64,000 nucleotides of DNA, taken from an uncultured Pseudomonadales bacterium (GTDB taxonomy: Bacteria; Patescibacteriota; Microgenomatia; UBA1400; PJMF01). Position numbers and translations under genes: made by a program. The notes beneath the pieces were generated by a model. It saw only the letters and a list, made by a program, of their open reading frames with translations, made no database searches and was not told the DNA's origin. The DNA lies in the NCBI GenBank assembly GCA_964620965.1, contig CAZUHV010000002.1, positions 117,452 through 181,451 on the forward strand, given 5' to 3'. Below, piece by piece: positions 5,178 to 25,499 of the stretch; position 1 is the first letter of the stretch, and the number at the start of each line of letters is the position of its first letter.

Positions 5178-6218
5178 ATGAGAAAAAATCTAAATAATAC
5201 TTTTTATCTTTCTTTCTTGGCAATTTTGTTTGTTCTTGTGTTTTTAGCAACTCCTCAAAAAGCCTCTGCTGCCCAACTTACGGAAGGATATCTCAGACTC
5301 AATAGAATGAAAGCTTCAACTGCTACCGGAGGCACAGTCTGTGCAAAGATGGCAACAACAGCTGGAACAGACGCTAAAATAAAGGTTACTTTCCCAACAG
5401 GCTTTACAGTAAACTCTACTGCAAGCAACTGGACTGTTACCACTTCCAATCTTCCAGAAAATGGAAGTGCAATGCCAGGTATAGATACTGCAACTGCAGT
5501 ATCTGGACAAACAGTAACTTTCCCGATCTCAGACATTTCTTCAAACTCAACACTATATTGTTTTAACTTTGCAAGTTCTAGCACATTAACTACAAGTACA
5601 GCAGGAAACGACAAAACGGGTTCTATCTCTGTCACTACAAGTGGTGACTCAGAAATAGATGGTGGTATTTATGCAACCTCAGTTATCTCTGATGACCAAG
5701 TAGTTATTACTGCTACTGTTCCTGCAACATTTAGTTTCGCCTTAGGATCTAACACTCAATCACTCGGAACACTTTCAACTGGAAGTGTAAGCTCAGGATC
5801 TGGTGTGAGTGTCACAATTGGAACTAATGCTGGTAATGGTTGGATTGGTTGGGTACTCAGTGCAAATGCCGCCCTTAATTCTGCTGCAACAAGTGATGCT
5901 ATTTCTACGACTGGCTCTGTAGATAACTCCCCTAGCACTCTCTCTGCTGGAACCGAAGGATATGTTTTAGATGCAGATCTTACTTCCGATTCTGCGACAA
6001 GTGGCACTGGAAGTGTGACAATTGATGCAGAATATAATGGCACAACAACAAGTCAAGGTGGAACCCTTTCGACAACATTTACAGAATTCGCCTCTGCAGA
6101 TGGACCAACAGATAGTGACGTTATCACACTTGTCCCTAGAGTTGCAATTTCTGCCTTAACCCAAGCTGCTACAGATTACACTGACACTCTCACAGTTGTT
6201 GCTGCTGGACACTTCTAG
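5178..6218 (+). CDS. secreted Ser/Thr/Gly-rich cell-surface protein, paralogue A
   Basis: Signal peptide MRKNLNNTFYLSFLAILFVLVFLATPQKASA|AQ, then low-complexity beta-rich sequence ending ...ATDYTDTLTVVAAGHF. The C-terminal roughly 100 aa are paralogous to 8864..9907. Confidence 0.7.
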   Translation: MRKNLNNTFYLSFLAILFVLVFLATPQKASAAQLTEGYLRLNRMKASTATGGTVCAKMATTAGTDAKIKVTFPTGFTVNSTASNWTVTTSNLPENGSAMPGIDTATAVSGQTVTFPISDISSNSTLYCFNFASSSTLTTSTAGNDKTGSISVTTSGDSEIDGGIYATSVISDDQVVITATVPATFSFALGSNTQSLGTLSTGSVSSGSGVSVTIGTNAGNGWIGWVLSANAALNSAATSDAISTTGSVDNSPSTLSAGTEGYVLDADLTSDSATSGTGSVTIDAEYNGTTTSQGGTLSTTFTEFASADGPTDSDVITLVPRVAISALTQAATDYTDTLTVVAAGHF

Positions 6219-6241: not shown

Positions 6242-7375
6242 ATGAGGATTCGACTTAAGTACATATTTTTTTTGTTTTTCTTAATAGCACAGTTATTCTT
6301 TGTTAATACAAAAATTGCTTTCGCCCAAACTGAAACTAGTGAACCAGAGGCAACCGAATCTGCTCAAGAATTTATATATATCGAACCAAATTCAGAACCA
6401 CTCAACCTTACAATTTCTCCTGCAACCTTACTATTAGATACAAAACCAGGAAACCCAGTAAATACTTCTTTTCAAGTCTTTAATAATTCTACAGAAACTG
6501 AGTATCTTAAAATTGACTTACTCACATTTGGTGCAAATGCCACTGGAGACGAACCGGTTATCAAGCCCTTCGAACTAGGAGATGATTCCGAATCTTGGCT
6601 CACTTTTGATAATAAAAACATAACAGTTCAACCAAAAACTTGGAAAACTGTTCACGTAACCTTTTCTCCACCAGAATCTGCAGCGCTTTCATACTACTAT
6701 TCAATAGTAATTTCAAGACAAACCTCACAAACCATAAAAGAAGGAGAAACAAACGTTGTTGGAGCTCCTGCTTTGCTATTACTTGCTACTGTTCAATCTC
6801 CATACGCAAAGCAAGAGTTACAGTTGAAAAGCTTCAAAACTACAAAAAAAATATTTGAGTTTCTTCCTGTGGAATTTGAGTTAACAATACAAAATACAGG
6901 AAATGTACATCTTGCTCCAGTTGGTAACATATTTATAGATAGCAGCAGAGAAAAAGATGTTGGATTGATTCAAATAAACAGAACAAATGGTCTCATACTT
7001 CCAGGCTCAACAAGAACATATACACTAAGGTGGGAAGACGGATTTCCAGTTTTTGCCGATAAACAAGTAGATGGCTCTATAGTAACTGACTCAGCCGGAA
7101 ATCCAAAGAAAGAACTCAAATGGGATTTTTCTAAAGCAAACTTTTTTAGGTTTGGAAAATACACTGCACACCTTTTATTTATTTTTGACAACGGAGAAAG
7201 AGACGTCCCAACAGAGGCTAAACTATCATTTTGGGTCCTACCATATAGGATACTTGTTATCTTTGGTTTAGTTGGAGGTACAACTATTCTTGGGATAGCC
7301 ATCCCACTAGTACTTATATTTAAACGTATGCGAAAACAAAATGAAAAAAAACAAACTCCCACTGAAACTAAATAG
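6242..7375 (+). CDS. secreted beta-sandwich protein with a C-terminal transmembrane anchor (CscA-like, DUF916/DUF3324-type architecture)
   Basis: N-terminal signal peptide, a LTISPATLLLDTKPGNP...FQVFNNS segment, a TIQNTGNVHLAPVGNIFID motif, and a C-terminal TM ILVIFGLVGGTTILGIAIPLVLIF followed by a basic tail KRMRKQNEKK. Confidence 0.65.
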   Translation: MRIRLKYIFFLFFLIAQLFFVNTKIAFAQTETSEPEATESAQEFIYIEPNSEPLNLTISPATLLLDTKPGNPVNTSFQVFNNSTETEYLKIDLLTFGANATGDEPVIKPFELGDDSESWLTFDNKNITVQPKTWKTVHVTFSPPESAALSYYYSIVISRQTSQTIKEGETNVVGAPALLLLATVQSPYAKQELQLKSFKTTKKIFEFLPVEFELTIQNTGNVHLAPVGNIFIDSSREKDVGLIQINRTNGLILPGSTRTYTLRWEDGFPVFADKQVDGSIVTDSAGNPKKELKWDFSKANFFRFGKYTAHLLFIFDNGERDVPTEAKLSFWVLPYRILVIFGLVGGTTILGIAIPLVLIFKRMRKQNEKKQTPTETK

Positions 7376-8279
7376 ATACTTTCATATTCTTTTTCTATTT
7401 ATTTTTATATACTTCTTTCCAAAAGCAGTATTTGCACAAGAATCTCTTACTGTTTCGCCTGCATACCAAGAAGTAGTTCTTGAACCTCAAAATGATTCTA
7501 GTGAGTTCAGTATCTCTATCAGAAATGACACAAAAATAGCAGAGTCTTTCGAACTATTTGCTGTTGAGTTTCCTTCTGGTGCACAGTTTGGATCACTTGG
7601 ATTTATTGATTTTGATTCAAGCGATATTAAACAACAGCCGAGCTACATTTCATTTGACACTCAACAGTTTGTTGTTGATCCAAATACTTCAAAAGAAATT
7701 CACGCTACTATCGAAAACCGAGCAAGCTTAAAACCAGGTGGAACGTATCTTTCTGTTATTATTCGATCCTTGAGAGAAAAAAATAGCTCTGGGCAAACAA
7801 TTCTTCCAGCATTCGCTTCTCAACTTCTAATTCGAAAAACTGAAGGTGAGATAAAAAATATTTCACTTAAAACTGTCAGCGATACAGACAAAATTATATC
7901 ATTTACGATCCCAAAAACTGTAAAACTGTTATTTGAAAATAATGGAAATGTACACCTCATTCCTAGAGGAGAAGTGCGAATCGATACAGTATTTGGTGAA
8001 ACAATAAGTCAAGGAATAATTAATGAATCATCTTCTTATGTATATCCAGATAGTCAAAAAGAAATTACTGTACAGCTTTCTCAAGTAAATAAAAAAATAC
8101 CAATCTCGCTCATCACAATTACTGCTTTTGGCTCAGCCAATTCTATAGAATATAGAGCAGAACACTCATATATTTATATCAACCCATACTTTGTGGGCAT
8201 ATCCGCAACACTTTTTTTCTTGTTTATACTCTATGCATTCAAAAAGATAAAAAAACAACCAAAACATGAAACTGAATAA
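7341..8279 (+). CDS. second CscA-like secreted protein with a C-terminal TM anchor; paralogue of 6242..7375
   Basis: Signal peptide, LTVSPAYQEVVLEPQND...FSISIRNDT, ENNGNVHLIPRGEVRID motif, and C-terminal TM YFVGISATLFFLFILYAF plus KKIKKQ. It overlaps the previous gene by 35 nt. Confidence 0.65.
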   Translation: MKKNKLPLKLNRYFHILFLFIFIYFFPKAVFAQESLTVSPAYQEVVLEPQNDSSEFSISIRNDTKIAESFELFAVEFPSGAQFGSLGFIDFDSSDIKQQPSYISFDTQQFVVDPNTSKEIHATIENRASLKPGGTYLSVIIRSLREKNSSGQTILPAFASQLLIRKTEGEIKNISLKTVSDTDKIISFTIPKTVKLLFENNGNVHLIPRGEVRIDTVFGETISQGIINESSSYVYPDSQKEITVQLSQVNKKIPISLITITAFGSANSIEYRAEHSYIYINPYFVGISATLFFLFILYAFKKIKKQPKHETE

Positions 8280-14800: not shown

Positions 14801-16584
14801 ATGGCTATGTTATGGTGCAACATTTTAACGAAACTTCAGGAACTCACTTTGACTCTACTTCCAATAATAATGATTCAACCTCTGTGACTGTCACAACACA
14901 AGGTACTGCCACAGCCCAAATTGATGGAGCTGATGATTTTAATGGTTCTAATAACTATGTTGCCGTTGGTGATTCCAATTCACTAGATGTTACAAATTTT
15001 ACTATTTCTGGATGGTTTTCTATTGATACATTTCCTGGAACAGATCAATACAATAATATTCTTGATAAACAAGCCTATTTCCTTGAAGTAACAGATAACG
15101 ACGAATTTGACTGTGGAGTATACGATGGAAGTTTTTCTGAACATAACTCTGGTACCGCAAATCTCTCAACCGGAACTTACTACTATCTTGCCTGTGCATA
15201 TGATGATACGGGGGATACTGTTAGATTATATAAAAATAGTACTGAAGTATTAAATGAAGCTGCAACCAAAACACCAGCAACAAATAATATCGATATTGGT
15301 ATATACGCTCTTAGCGGAAATTTAGGCCAACAGCTCGACGGTCAAGCTGATGAGCTGGTTCTATCTAATGTCGCCCGTTCTGCGGATTGGCTCAACACCG
15401 AATACAACAACCAAAGTAATCCTGGAGTTGGAGGCTTTCTCACCAGTATAGGCACTGAAGAAACCGAAGGAACGGGCGCAACCTGGTTAGCGAATGAAGA
15501 CACGGCAGTTACAGATATTGCTAAAGAAACAAACGTAAGAATAAGATTTATGGTTTCTAATGAAGGTGGTGCTACATCAGATGCTACAGCATACCAATTA
15601 GAAGTTGCAGAAACTGGTACTTGTAGTGGTGGAACATATGCTGCTGTCCCAACTGACACGAGTGGAGACTGGCAAGTTTCGGCCTCAGCACATTTTACAG
15701 ACGGAGATCCCACAACAAATATTGCAAGTGGTCTAGCAGATGAAAACACAACTTTTGTTGCTGGACAAATTAAAGACACTGGCAACACTACAGGAAATAT
15801 CACATTAGCAGATACAGAATTTACAGAAATAGAGTTTTCCATTCAAGCTACAACCAATGCTACTGACGGTGGCTCGTACTGCTTTAGATTAAATGGTGCA
15901 GATACGTTCACTGAATACGCACAAGCCACACTCGAGGGAGGGGCAAGCCCCGTTTTTTCACTGAGTGCCTATCGATTTTATGATCAAACAGCTTCAGAAA
16001 ATGTCACAAACCCTTGGGGAAATCCTACTATTGCTGAAAATACACTACTTGCTCTTCTGCCAGCAACTAACACTCCTCCAGGAAATAGAGAAGATATAAG
16101 ACTAAGAGTTGGCATATCAGTTAGTACTGGGGCACTCTCCGCAACGAGTCAACAATTTAAATTACAATACAAGTCAGGCACTGATGCAAACTGTACTACA
16201 GGGTCATGGACTGACGTTGGAACGTCTATTAGTAGTGAAACATGGAGATACTCTACAACAGGTATCACTGACGGTACAACGCTGACAGCTCTTAAATTAT
16301 CTGGAAGTGATGTATTAGGCGTGTATGTAAAATCAAATCCAAGCGCAACAAACCCAAATGCTGTAGCTGTTGGAGAAACAGTTGAATATGATTTCAACTT
16401 TAAAGGCTTTAGTGCTGCATCAGCAACCACATATAGCTTTAGAGTTGTCGAAAGTGATGGAACTCCTTTAACAACATACACCTACTGTCCGACTCTTACA
16501 ACAAAAGCCGCTACAGAACAAGAATTACGGCACGGAAACGTGTTTTCTAATGAGACAGAACAAGGATTTACCCGTGCAAATTAG
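11836..16584 (+). CDS. giant (1582 aa) surface protein with Ig-like repeats and DUF2341 and LamG/concanavalin-like modules
   Basis: N-terminal TM FVLALWFIISNFLFGF. Repeated domain-start motifs appear: EGYRWRNDDGNETGATW, IHYRWRNDDGTEGSSGW and GTGATWLANEDTAV. A DUF2341-like segment reads WVYRKKLTIDNTDVAGSSNLTNFPVLINY...GDILFTNSAGTKLDHEI...IYMYYGYG. A LamG-like segment follows: FNGSNNYVAVGDSNSLD...FTISGWFSID...YYLACAYDDTGDTVRLYKNS. Confidence 0.8.
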   Translation: MHMLFQQLAKIKLKKKILVKSTRFVLALWFIISNFLFGFPIDYILKTPVVIQQAKANSNTYDFTDCGSTCDTDTGWWASDDDVDQFPFGGVTANRNTHAEADDTNYSNMANSDDTYAVATNPSTGDEVFSWFEMTITETPSTIKQLDFTFEGYPNTTASPFQIYVKTAAGAYESDASWTALSGPTTIAAGTDTTITRTLKDNITDYIDGNGKIVWGVYQSVSALTVNIDYAKIDVTYHPVDLEGYRWRNDDGNETGATWLADQDSNITQPTATNTRLRTLINSTGTADPDTSQYKLEYKRSTDSTYVPVEVTTPTDVTPTIESWSSGASTTTNASTHAITMPSGITAGDLLIIVFSTDGVADITITAGDWIELSQAQGSGVSSGIFYKFATGSDTATVATGSEQTSHIVYRISGASMPYIAQTTGNSTNSDPPNLDTGTSRNYLWLATATHDSTVVASAAPTNYSNLHTQAAAGTGGASTSTAERAATASSENPGTFTSNTEQWVSFTIAIPSSSMGIHCATAPTTQGTTSVVINYPTDIAVGDLMVLGIANKHTPNGPTTPTGWTAASNYQASGSGGIDGLDSGSVYSSVYYRIVDGTEKGTFTVSVPSGNASIGRILTYRKEVGKEWDVAMSNGSDNTPDTSWSITAGSDPGITAGDMVLAVSAMNTDPYGYNTQTLAATGVTFDSAEKEVGETNSTAGNDLEIVFSNHFAISGTSSAAPTYTMTASGSTASGPAGATVFVRIRQRTAPITLSASTHITASGDNTTALLTPPAGKTTGDFLTGRMQDDENPADTINLSSSQYTELEWNIIATSTAVNDEIYQFRVTVGGVPITTYSVTPQWTIGTAGTADLNQIHYRWRNDDGTEGSSGWYDSNWVYRKKLTIDNTDVAGSSNLTNFPVLINYTHADLKDTTNSGHVAQSDAGDILFTNSAGTKLDHEITKYVPSTGQVIAWVEVDVLDYDDDTEIYMYYGYGAASDQWNISGTWSNGYVMVQHFNETSGTHFDSTSNNNDSTSVTVTTQGTATAQIDGADDFNGSNNYVAVGDSNSLDVTNFTISGWFSIDTFPGTDQYNNILDKQAYFLEVTDNDEFDCGVYDGSFSEHNSGTANLSTGTYYYLACAYDDTGDTVRLYKNSTEVLNEAATKTPATNNIDIGIYALSGNLGQQLDGQADELVLSNVARSADWLNTEYNNQSNPGVGGFLTSIGTEETEGTGATWLANEDTAVTDIAKETNVRIRFMVSNEGGATSDATAYQLEVAETGTCSGGTYAAVPTDTSGDWQVSASAHFTDGDPTTNIASGLADENTTFVAGQIKDTGNTTGNITLADTEFTEIEFSIQATTNATDGGSYCFRLNGADTFTEYAQATLEGGASPVFSLSAYRFYDQTASENVTNPWGNPTIAENTLLALLPATNTPPGNREDIRLRVGISVSTGALSATSQQFKLQYKSGTDANCTTGSWTDVGTSISSETWRYSTTGITDGTTLTALKLSGSDVLGVYVKSNPSATNPNAVAVGETVEYDFNFKGFSAASATTYSFRVVESDGTPLTTYTYCPTLTTKAATEQELRHGNVFSNETEQGFTRAN

Positions 16585-17191
16585 AATAATTACTTTTGCA
16601 ATATTTTTTCTTTTTTTAGTGTTTATAACATACAACTTGTTTTTTGTTCCAGATGATCATTCAAAATCAGAAGGGTCAACTCTCGCTCTTTCAAGTGATG
16701 GTTCAAAAACAGATATATTTATTCAAGATAGTGAGACTCTCATACCTATCTCTACAGCAAGTGCAAATCATAATGAAGCATTCTCCAGAGGAGACTTTAT
16801 AGTCTGGATAGAAGAATCTCAATATAAAAGTGAAAAAGTTGTCGTTCGGTATCATGTTCCTACACAAACTACTATCTACATAACTTCACTTGGAAGTTCA
16901 CAGAAACCTAAAGTTAGTACAGAAGGTTATGTTGTATGGCAAGAATGGATAGATGAAACCTGGCAGATTTTTTACTTTGATGGTTTGACCAGCAAACAAA
17001 TAACTCACAGTAGTTCGAGCTCTCTTAATCCAGATATTTCTGGAAATACAGTTGTGTATGCTAGAAAAAATGAATCTAACACATGGGAAACTATTGAATT
17101 TTCCCTTAAAAATAACACTGAAAAAGTGGTTAAATCTGGAATTGAAGCTAAAAATCCCTATTTTTATGGCACAAAATTATTTTTTCGCTGA
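16550..17191 (+). CDS. hypothetical signal-anchored protein (beta-propeller-like fragments)
   Basis: A 213-aa ORF with N-terminal TM IITFAIFFLFLVFITYNLFF. It overlaps the end of the giant gene by 35 nt and ends with TGA. Confidence 0.5.
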   Translation: MRQNKDLPVQIRIITFAIFFLFLVFITYNLFFVPDDHSKSEGSTLALSSDGSKTDIFIQDSETLIPISTASANHNEAFSRGDFIVWIEESQYKSEKVVVRYHVPTQTTIYITSLGSSQKPKVSTEGYVVWQEWIDETWQIFYFDGLTSKQITHSSSSSLNPDISGNTVVYARKNESNTWETIEFSLKNNTEKVVKSGIEAKNPYFYGTKLFFR

Positions 17192-24770: not shown

Positions 24771-25499
24771 GTGAAGAAAATCACTTTTTTTATTTTATCG
24801 GCGGTATTTTTTTTACTTGGTTTTGCTTCTGTTTTTCTTCCTAAAAAACAGTACTGTGCAAACTCAATTTCTTGTATTAAAAACCTTGAAACAGAAGTTG
24901 ATAATACTCAAACAGCAACTTTTTTGGGTCAAGAAATTTCCCCACCAAAAATATACCTCTCAAATGAAGATGCAATGATTCCAAACCAGGTACTTGGCGT
25001 TGAGTCACAAGCAGAACTTGAAACAAATGATATTAAAAAACATATTTATGTAGACCTTAAAAACCAAACACTCTATGCATATGAAGGCAACGAGCTTTAT
25101 TTTCAAACTTTAGTTTCTACGGGAAAGTGGGGAAGAACTCCAACTGGAACTTTCAAAATTTGGATAAAAATTCGTGCACAAAAAATGTCTGGAGGTAGTG
25201 GAAATGATTATTACTATCTACCAAATGTGCCATATATCATGTTCTTCTACAATTCTGAAGTCTCTAAAGATCGCGGATTTAGTCTGCATGGAACATACTG
25301 GCATAATAATTTTGGTCATGCTATGAGTCATGGATGTGTGAACTTAAGAACCATAGATGCAAAAGTTCTCTATGACTGGACAACACCCGCTACTACTGCA
25401 ACAACGACTCGTGCAACTTCAGAAAATCCTGGAACTGAAATTACAATTTGCGATGAATTAGAAATAATTCAAGGGGAAACACCAAAATGCCTAGAATAA
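24771..25499 (+). CDS. L,D-transpeptidase (YkuD family), membrane-anchored
   Basis: N-terminal TM ITFFILSAVFFLLGFASVFL. The catalytic motif HGT...SHGCVNL is present. Confidence 0.8.
   Translation: MKKITFFILSAVFFLLGFASVFLPKKQYCANSISCIKNLETEVDNTQTATFLGQEISPPKIYLSNEDAMIPNQVLGVESQAELETNDIKKHIYVDLKNQTLYAYEGNELYFQTLVSTGKWGRTPTGTFKIWIKIRAQKMSGGSGNDYYYLPNVPYIMFFYNSEVSKDRGFSLHGTYWHNNFGHAMSHGCVNLRTIDAKVLYDWTTPATTATTTRATSENPGTEITICDELEIIQGETPKCLE

Follow-up and report, generated by a model that had tools for sequence, protein, structure and literature searches.

Two tandem membrane-anchored paralogues in a Patescibacteria gene module are remote relatives of the WxLIP/CscA proteins

Introduction

The stretch of 64,000 nucleotides (nt) analysed here (contig CAZUHV010000002.1 of assembly GCA_964620965.1, positions 117,452 to 181,451 of the forward strand; hereafter the window) is deposited under the name of an uncultured Pseudomonadales bacterium and assigned by its GTDB lineage to the Patescibacteriota (Microgenomatia, UBA1400, PJMF01). 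It carries two overlapping genes, here named A and B, for which a preliminary description made from the sequence alone had proposed membership in the WxLIP/CscA family, i.e., proteins with the domains DUF916 (PF06030, WxLIP_PGBD) and DUF3324 (PF11797, WxLIP_HBD) that partner with WxL proteins in Lactobacillales and Bacillales. This locus raises the question of whether A and B are indeed anchors of this type and, if so, what they might hold at the cell surface. Altogether, our analysis identified A and B as remote homologues of WxLIP proteins in their architecture and their first domain, and by every curated threshold they lie outside this family. Both are part of a gene module that also comprises two genes for secreted proteins, X1 and X2, and a gene for a small protein, S.

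Topology and paralogy of A and B

Both open reading frames (ORFs) were recovered on the plus strand at the positions given in the preliminary description (Table 1), and their overlap of 35 nt, spanning the ATG of B at 7341 and the TAG of A at 7373–7375, was exact. The two motifs pointed out there as shared, LT[IV]SPA and N[TN]GNVHL[AI]P.G.[IV].ID, were found in both translations, namely as LTISPA and NTGNVHLAPVGNIFID in A and as LTVSPA and NNGNVHLIPRGEVRID in B. Tandem paralogy was likewise borne out, both by BLASTP of A against B (E value of 1e-15, 24% identity over 268 residues) and by an hhalign comparison of the A family with the B family after removal of signal peptides and transmembrane segments (probability of 99.7, E value of 4.8e-26, 208 columns). 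Judged by their sequences, A and B are thus true paralogues.

In regard to their topology, hydropathy analysis revealed a basic n-region, a hydrophobic core, and an AxA-type cleavage site at both N-termini (KIAFA↓Q in A, AVFA↓Q in B), as well as a C-terminal hydrophobic segment, which comprises residues 337–355 in A, followed by KRMRKQNEKKQ..., and residues 282–300 in B, followed by KKIKKQPKHETE. An AlphaFold2 (AF2) model of A, calculated with 63 homologues, reached a predicted local distance difference test score (pLDDT) of 91 and displayed two domains of beta-sandwich fold, followed by a helix at the C-terminus (residues 335–369); the F–G loop of domain 1 (residues 160–176) had a lower pLDDT than the rest of that domain. 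The C-terminal transmembrane segment is kept in 85 of the 91 homologues of A and in 44 of the 47 homologues of B, and a net-positive tail with a median charge of +5 and a median length of 13–18 residues follows in 85/91 and 47/47 of them, respectively. Hydropathy, the positive-inside rule, and the helix of the AF2 model together indicate that A and B are exported proteins, which are anchored by their C-terminal helix and have their tail inside the cell. Signal peptides, a single C-terminal transmembrane segment, and a K/R-rich tail had all been predicted for them previously, and each of these features stood.

A separate observation concerns the residues directly before the transmembrane helix, where a juxtamembrane motif [VIL]xP[WYF] was detected in 88 of the 91 homologues of A and in 7 of the 47 homologues of B. 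In A itself, it is part of residues 330–335 (FWVLPY, window positions 7229–7246), which in the AF2 model make up the final part of the last beta-strand as well as the helix cap. Possible roles of the motif are those of a structural cap or of a recognition site.

Relationship to WxLIP proteins

WxLIP/CscA proteins have been described as consisting of a signal peptide, two immunoglobulin (Ig)-like domains, a transmembrane helix, and a basic tail (PMC10599100). A and B display the same architecture at a similar size (312–377 amino acids (aa) versus 337–365 aa) and, as in the known systems, are encoded beside a pair of secreted proteins with a common domain located strictly at the C-terminus. In regard to standard families, the DUF916/DUF3324 assignment of the preliminary description could not be reproduced for the window proteins, since neither PF06030 nor PF11797 matched A or B at an E value of 1 or below in hidden Markov model (HMM) searches; a scan against NCBIfam yielded nothing beyond sub-threshold matches to generic Ig-like families. 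At the level of the families, PF06030 was the most often matched Pfam family of the B family, with 33 of 41 members and a best E value of 4.6e-6, and it was also matched by 12 of the 63 members of the A family. The match spans about positions 21–120 of the 121-position model and lies at the same place in the B proteins.

For a direct comparison, we collected genuine WxLIP sequences starting from a 49-residue stretch of EfmWxLIP3, taken from the mass-spectrometry table of PMC10599100. This query led to genes annotated as ‘DUF916 and DUF3324’ on Enterococcus plasmids, including one complete WxL cluster (locus L006), and among the matches listed for the homologues of its WxLIP, all 120 carried PF11797 as well as PF06030. 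The final alignment (A5) consisted of 42 sequences, namely 41 homologues of the L006 WxLIP and a Melissococcus WxLIP from a second locus (L007). After removal of signal peptides and transmembrane segments, hhalign aligned the merged A and B ectodomains with the WxLIP ectodomain over 210 collinear columns (probability of 92.1, E value of 6.4e-7), and the B ectodomain alone gave a probability of 80.1 and an E value of 1.4e-5 over 212 columns. As controls for the merged profile, a reversed WxLIP profile resulted in an E value of 0.48, and beta-sandwich profiles of WxL and of the N- and C-terminal parts of X1 all remained above 0.1.

Split by domain, the similarity is concentrated in domain 1, which is a remote homologue of the DUF916 region (probability of 87.4, E value of 3.7e-6), and continues collinearly into domain 2. 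There, the comparison with the DUF3324 region was weak (E value of 0.0018, probability of 15, 38 columns), while cross-domain and reversed controls ranged from 0.1 to 0.5. In the AF2 model of A, an Ig-like domain does occupy the position of DUF3324. Thus, of the earlier CscA proposal, the architecture and a remote relationship of domain 1 to DUF916 can be retained; family matches of the window proteins and a recognizable DUF3324 cannot. The conserved N-terminal motif of WxLIP proteins, NQIDKxxxYFDLK (PMC10599100), is absent as well, the aligned position reading NLTISPATLLLDT in A and SLTVSPAYQEVVLEP in B; of the motif, B has retained no more than parts of F/Y-x-[DE]-[LV]-x-L.

An earlier comparison of the full-length A family with WxLIP (probability of 77.9, E value of 1.8e-5) was dropped as evidence, because its E value fell back to 0.04 once signal peptide and transmembrane helix had been trimmed, so that most of the first score was owed to the helix. 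As a methodological point, the transmembrane helix dominates profile–profile scores of single-pass membrane proteins, and such comparisons should be made with ectodomains only.

In regard to solved structures, HMM searches with the A and B family profiles against the sequences of the PDB revealed nothing meaningful. At the level of structure, a Foldseek search with the A model retrieved solved WxLIP chains, namely 9i25_C (E value of 2.2e-8), a crystallised complex whose title reads WxLIP-long WxL, and 9i1y (3e-8 to 5e-8), with template modelling scores (TM-scores) of 0.38–0.44.

In addition to the Enterococcus plasmids, the EfmWxLIP3 query matched plasmid CP069369.1, which is labelled Klebsiella pneumoniae, at positions 25209–25316, where a WxLIP-like peptide with 78% identity over 36 residues is encoded without an annotated gene. 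Such a peptide is unexpected in this host and may reflect mislabelling or transfer.

Gene order and distribution in Patescibacteria

In the window, the genes X1, A, B, S, and X2, followed by genes for a 616-aa fibre-like protein and a 1582-aa giant protein with a DUF2341 domain, lie tightly packed in this order on one strand. Synteny was studied in four diverged genomic contexts of A homologues and, using ORF calls and family HMMs, in 80 further loci from a metagenome scan, at 37–61% identity. The same gene order was found in all four diverged contexts, and every gene of the module lay on the same strand throughout the sample. Among the loci with sufficient room, the gene immediately preceding A was X1 in 37 of 38 cases, and S followed B; B directly followed the last A gene in 45 of 47 loci, the remaining two displaying a larger gap. 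In all loci, the place of X2 was either after S or before X1, and the commonest overlap between A and B was 4 nt. The order of the module is thus nearly invariant. Scans for promoters and terminators gave results at chance level.

Several loci deviate in copy number, with two A genes ahead of B in L004, L091–L093, L100, L102, L117, and L126. Moreover, single ORFs that appear as A–B or B–B fusions were found among database proteins (P0090, P0492, and P0494); if these are real, an internal signal peptide must serve as a second transmembrane segment. A Rosetta-stone search revealed A–B and B–B fusions only and none involving X1 or X2.

With the A profile, 9160 cluster representatives out of 1.84 billion were detected at an E value of 1e-3 or below, and 4240 at 1e-10 or below. 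Named homologues of A belong to Woesebacteria and to the ‘Patescibacteria group’, and those of X1 to Microgenomates, Moranbacteria, and Andersenbacteria; the module is attributed to the Patescibacteria on the strength of these names. It is a large and phylum-wide module, and the degree of conservation within it is far higher for A and B than for the variable adhesin-like giants encoded downstream. A mirror-tree analysis of 16 loci resulted in partial correlations of 0.42 for A with X1 and 0.31 for B with X2, compared to -0.19 and -0.32 for the crossed pairs, which gives a weak hint that each anchor may be paired with its own cargo, A with X1 and B with X2.

The putative cargo proteins X1 and X2

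X1 and X2 share their C-terminal domain (E value of 3e-7 over the C-terminal 153 residues), which in X1 comprises about residues 176–346. X1 ends with DYTDTLTVVAAGHF and X2 with DYAETLTFIAAANF at the carboxyl terminus, corresponding to a common ending of DYTDTLTxxAAxxF. Residues D333, Y334, D336, T339, and F346 are invariant in X1 homologues; among 61 X1 homologues, 56 end in F, and among 37 X2 homologues, 34 end in F or Y. More than 1480 homologues of X1 were found, none of them carrying a Pfam domain, and HMM searches with the X1 and X2 profiles against PDB sequences gave nothing meaningful. A Foldseek search with the AF2 model of X1 resulted in generic two-domain adhesins (integrin legs, MSCRAMMs, PapG, and CfaE) at TM-scores of about 0.2, which is uninformative.

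In their general design, X1 and X2 resemble WxL proteins such as CscB/CscC and ElrA (PF13731), as both groups have their conserved domain at the extreme C-terminus behind variable N-terminal parts and occur as two genes per cluster beside a WxLIP-like gene. Both also contain a C-terminal strand of the type Y-x-x-x-L-T, reading YTDTLTV in X1 and X2 and YxTKLTW in WxL proteins. In contrast, X2 lacks a conserved Trp-x-Leu pair (X1 has W222 and W225, and X2 has no Trp there), the last residue of X1 and X2 is an invariant aromatic one in place of the P(G/A)N ending of WxL proteins, and neither a Pfam match nor profile–profile similarity connects the two groups.

From 80 Firmicutes WxLIP loci, 208 short WxL proteins were collected for a WxL profile, which was compared with X1 and X2 in three profile–profile set-ups, including a global mode and a reversed control. 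The sole stretch that aligned was a C-terminal one of 13 columns (AATDYTDTLTV versus K.A..Y.TtLtW, E value of 0.39). The preliminary description had suggested the products of the genes at 5178 and 8864, i.e., X1 and X2, as WxL partners; no WxL signal was found in them by Pfam or by comparison with the 208 WxL domains, and with negative results in every set-up, the proposal that X1 and X2 are WxL proteins was rejected.

Evidence against a WxLIP relationship and alternative explanations

A number of results weigh against reading A and B as WxLIP-type anchors. In the Pfam scan, A and B of the window matched only Ig-like families below threshold (fn3_5, Cep192, CFAP65), and ten members of the B family scanned singly scored 14–21 bits with PF06030, compared to a cut-off of 27.3. 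PF11797 was absent among the 25 most-matched Pfam families of the 63 A and 41 B members, and domain 2 looks CARDB/DUF7507-like by sequence. On the side of the putative cargo, PF13731 matched none of 62 X1 and X2 members, profiles of their C-terminal domains (up to 124 sequences) reached E values of 0.13–0.39 against the WxL profile in local alignments, global alignments gave no match, and no WxL chain appeared among the top 50 Foldseek matches of the X1 model. Moreover, the best Foldseek matches of the A model were chaperones of the chaperone-usher systems, slightly ahead of WxLIP. Finally, the function of WxLIP proteins is itself only partly settled by experiment.

The structural matches in particular lead to an alternative in which A and B would be membrane-tethered chaperones of the chaperone-usher type, capping an incomplete Ig fold of X1 and X2 by donor-strand complementation and handing them over to a pilus or fibre in a cell without outer membrane or usher. 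PapD, FimC, CfaA, CsuC, and Caf1M share the two-domain Ig-like fold with the A model, the best match being CfaA (6k73_B, E value of 2.1e-10, TM-score of 0.53 on the target), followed by CsuC (3.4e-9), FimC (8e-8), and Caf1M (2e-7), with TM-scores of 0.48–0.55 on the target. As in these chaperones, the long F–G hairpin of domain 1 could donate a strand, and two homologues were named ‘P pilus assembly chaperone PapD’ by the Joint Genome Institute (JGI). The C-terminus of X1 and X2 is, as in chaperone-usher pilins, a conserved beta-strand closed by an aromatic residue. However, a placement in the PapD family by profile search, which the preliminary description had itself named among the competing outcomes, did not emerge: PapD_N and PapD_C were neither among the families listed for the window proteins nor among the 25 most-matched families of the 63 A and 41 B members, while WxLIP_PGBD was matched in both families at the frequencies given above. 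PapD-type chaperones are soluble and act together with an usher, whereas A and B have a conserved transmembrane anchor, and no usher-like gene or gene for an usher-sized beta-barrel was found in the module; the Patescibacteria host presumably lacks an outer membrane. A further feature of the chaperones is an Arg on the A1 strand that binds the carboxylate of the subunit, for which the LT[IV]SPA motif offers no counterpart. In addition, X1 was modelled with confidence as a monomer, with no need of a partner (pLDDT of 89). Taken together, we regard this explanation as unlikely.

Improbable, too, is that A and B are stand-alone Ig-like adhesins or spacers, which would merely be co-regulated with X1 and X2 without binding them directly. 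The sub-threshold matches of the A family to generic Ig-like and adhesion families, namely fn3_5 in 53, CARDB in 15, and DUF7507 in 13 of the 63 members, agree with such a role. Against it stand the near-invariant order with overlapping genes in loci down to about 37% identity, the homology to a family that was crystallised in complex with the product of a neighbouring gene, and a conservation of A and B far above that of the downstream adhesin-like giants.

Very improbable, in our view, is a cleavable sorting signal (sortase or exosortase type) composed of the C-terminal motif, the hydrophobic stretch, and the basic tail, which would leave the mature proteins linked to the wall: though this tripartite C-terminus is present and [VIL]xP[WYF] precedes the helix in nearly all homologues of A, the motif is rare in those of B and structural in the A model, the tails are long, no sortase-like gene was found in the module, and WxLIP homologues have been described as anchored by their transmembrane helix (PMC10599100).

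Further genes of the cluster

Protein S, which is always encoded behind B, is poorly conserved among its homologues (about 19% mean identity), the exceptions being a CFSF motif and the invariant R116. A role as sortase was ruled out for it, since it contains no conserved Cys.

Downstream of the module, residues of about 10–240 of the 616-aa protein are common to 31 ORFs located downstream of the module in loci of the candidate phyla radiation (CPR), while the C-terminal part varies. The protein revealed a weak match to NF053851 (Bdello_MAT_N; 37 bits compared to a cut-off of 60), the N-terminal domain of the mosaic adhesive trimer fibres of Bdellovibrio. The 1582-aa giant has counterparts in position in two other loci (L002 and L004), which harbor giant DUF2341/LamG proteins there. 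An additional ORF at 16550–17191, encoding 213 aa with an N-terminal transmembrane segment, overlaps the gene of the 1582-aa protein by 35 nt. For neither of these two ORFs was a homologue found in the other loci fetched, so that this end of the cluster is variable.

On the opposite strand, a 906-aa protein combines an X1-like N-terminus with a long middle part and two C-terminal helices resembling transmembrane segments at residues 695–713 and 850–868. Its long region is shared with homologues of 650–900 aa, which are encoded near the module in many loci. The protein is likely an accessory member of the cluster and could be related to the cargo protein but embedded in the membrane.

Table 1. 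Features of the module and its neighbourhood (window positions; approximate residue limits are marked with c.).
Feature	Residues or size	Position	Strand	Basis or remark
A, type I membrane protein resembling WxLIP	377 aa	6242–7375	+	ORF, hydropathy, AF2, Foldseek, per-member Pfam, hhalign
A, signal peptide	1–28	6242–6325	+	followed by an acidic linker
A, Ig-like domain 1	c. 55–186	6404–6799	+	AF2 model
A, Ig-like domain 2	c. 187–333	6800–7240	+	AF2 model
A, transmembrane helix	c. 336–358	7247–7315	+	
A, K/R-rich tail		7316–7372	+	
B, paralogue of A	312 aa	7341–8279	+	BLASTP, hydropathy, hhalign, Pfam, synteny
B, signal peptide	1–32	7341–7436	+	
B, ectodomain	33–278	7437–8174	+	
B, transmembrane segment	c. 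282–300	8184–8240	+	
B, basic tail		8241–8276	+	
X1, secreted protein with two beta-sandwich domains, putative partner or cargo for A	346 aa	5178–6218	+	ORF, signal peptide, AF2 (pLDDT of 89)
X2, secreted protein with fn3-like middle part, candidate second cargo	347 aa	8864–9907	+	C-terminal domain common with X1
S, small N-anchored protein	192 aa	8266–8844	+	transmembrane residues 6–24 (hydropathy); no Pfam match
Fibre-/adhesin-like protein	616 aa	9983–11833	+	N-terminal c. 230 residues form a conserved module
Giant surface protein with DUF2341 domain	1582 aa	11836–16584	+	PF10102, E value of 1.8e-9
Long X1-related protein	906 aa	17177–19897	-	X1 HMM positions 22–337 match residues 4–357, independent E value of 1.5e-69

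Discussion

A WxL gene cluster has been defined by at least two WxL-domain proteins encoded within four genes (PMC10599100), and 91% of WxL proteins are reported to occur in Firmicutes. The locus described here lies outside this definition, since X1 and X2 flank A and B without a WxL domain and carry a C-terminal domain of their own instead. The commonest arrangement in Firmicutes consists of one WxLIP and two WxL genes, while the Patescibacteria module harbors two paralogous anchors, and where Csc/WxL clusters encode a small LPXTG protein, it encodes the N-anchored S. The closest known system is the Csc/WxL cluster of Lactobacillales and Bacillales, from which the module differs in phylum, number of anchors, cargo domain, S, and the unrecognised second domain of its anchors.

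On balance, we favour, with moderate confidence, the explanation that A and B, as distant WxLIP homologues with type I membrane topology, dock X1 and X2 at the cell surface or stabilise them there. They would form the membrane-proximal part of a surface module consisting of X1, A, B, and S, with X2 alongside, and would bind X1 and X2 via the C-terminal domain common to both. The most likely route would be that the long F–G hairpin of domain 1 gives a beta-strand to this domain, by analogy to WxLIP and WxL. In the alignment, the F–G hairpin of A corresponds to the GG..F...hairpin...YVVALL segment of WxLIP, and we infer strand insertion from the WxLIP–WxL complex that was predicted by AF2 (PMC10599100) and from the crystallised one named in the title of 9i25. 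On this base, the variable products of the downstream genes, i.e., the fibre and giant proteins, would be presented outward.

A more far-reaching interpretation, which we put forward as a tentative and rather doubtful one, is that X1-A-B-S-X2 encodes a major and hitherto unassigned surface structure of the Patescibacteria. X1 and X2 would be the building blocks of a coat resembling a surface layer (S-layer) or of a short fibre, A and B would each hold their own cargo on the membrane by strand complementation, and variable adhesins would be plugged in for host contact.

In regard to previous work, none of the papers searched links WxL or DUF916 with Patescibacteria, and neither Pfam nor NCBIfam contains a family for the core proteins of the module. 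A life in attachment to other cells is assumed for the Patescibacteria, and of the systems that build their surface, hardly any but the type IV pili have been described. The link to WxLIP offers a concrete and testable mechanism, namely the binding of a secreted partner by a protein anchored in the membrane, and provides X1, A, and B as defined targets for localisation, metaproteomics, and the prediction of complexes. A system held to be a speciality of Lactobacillales and Bacillales is thereby extended to a deep-branching phylum, where it occurs with a different cargo domain. If the module does build a major surface structure, anchoring of the WxLIP type would be ancient and would have operated with a cargo domain other than WxL, and the Csc/WxL systems of Firmicutes would represent one specialised branch of it.

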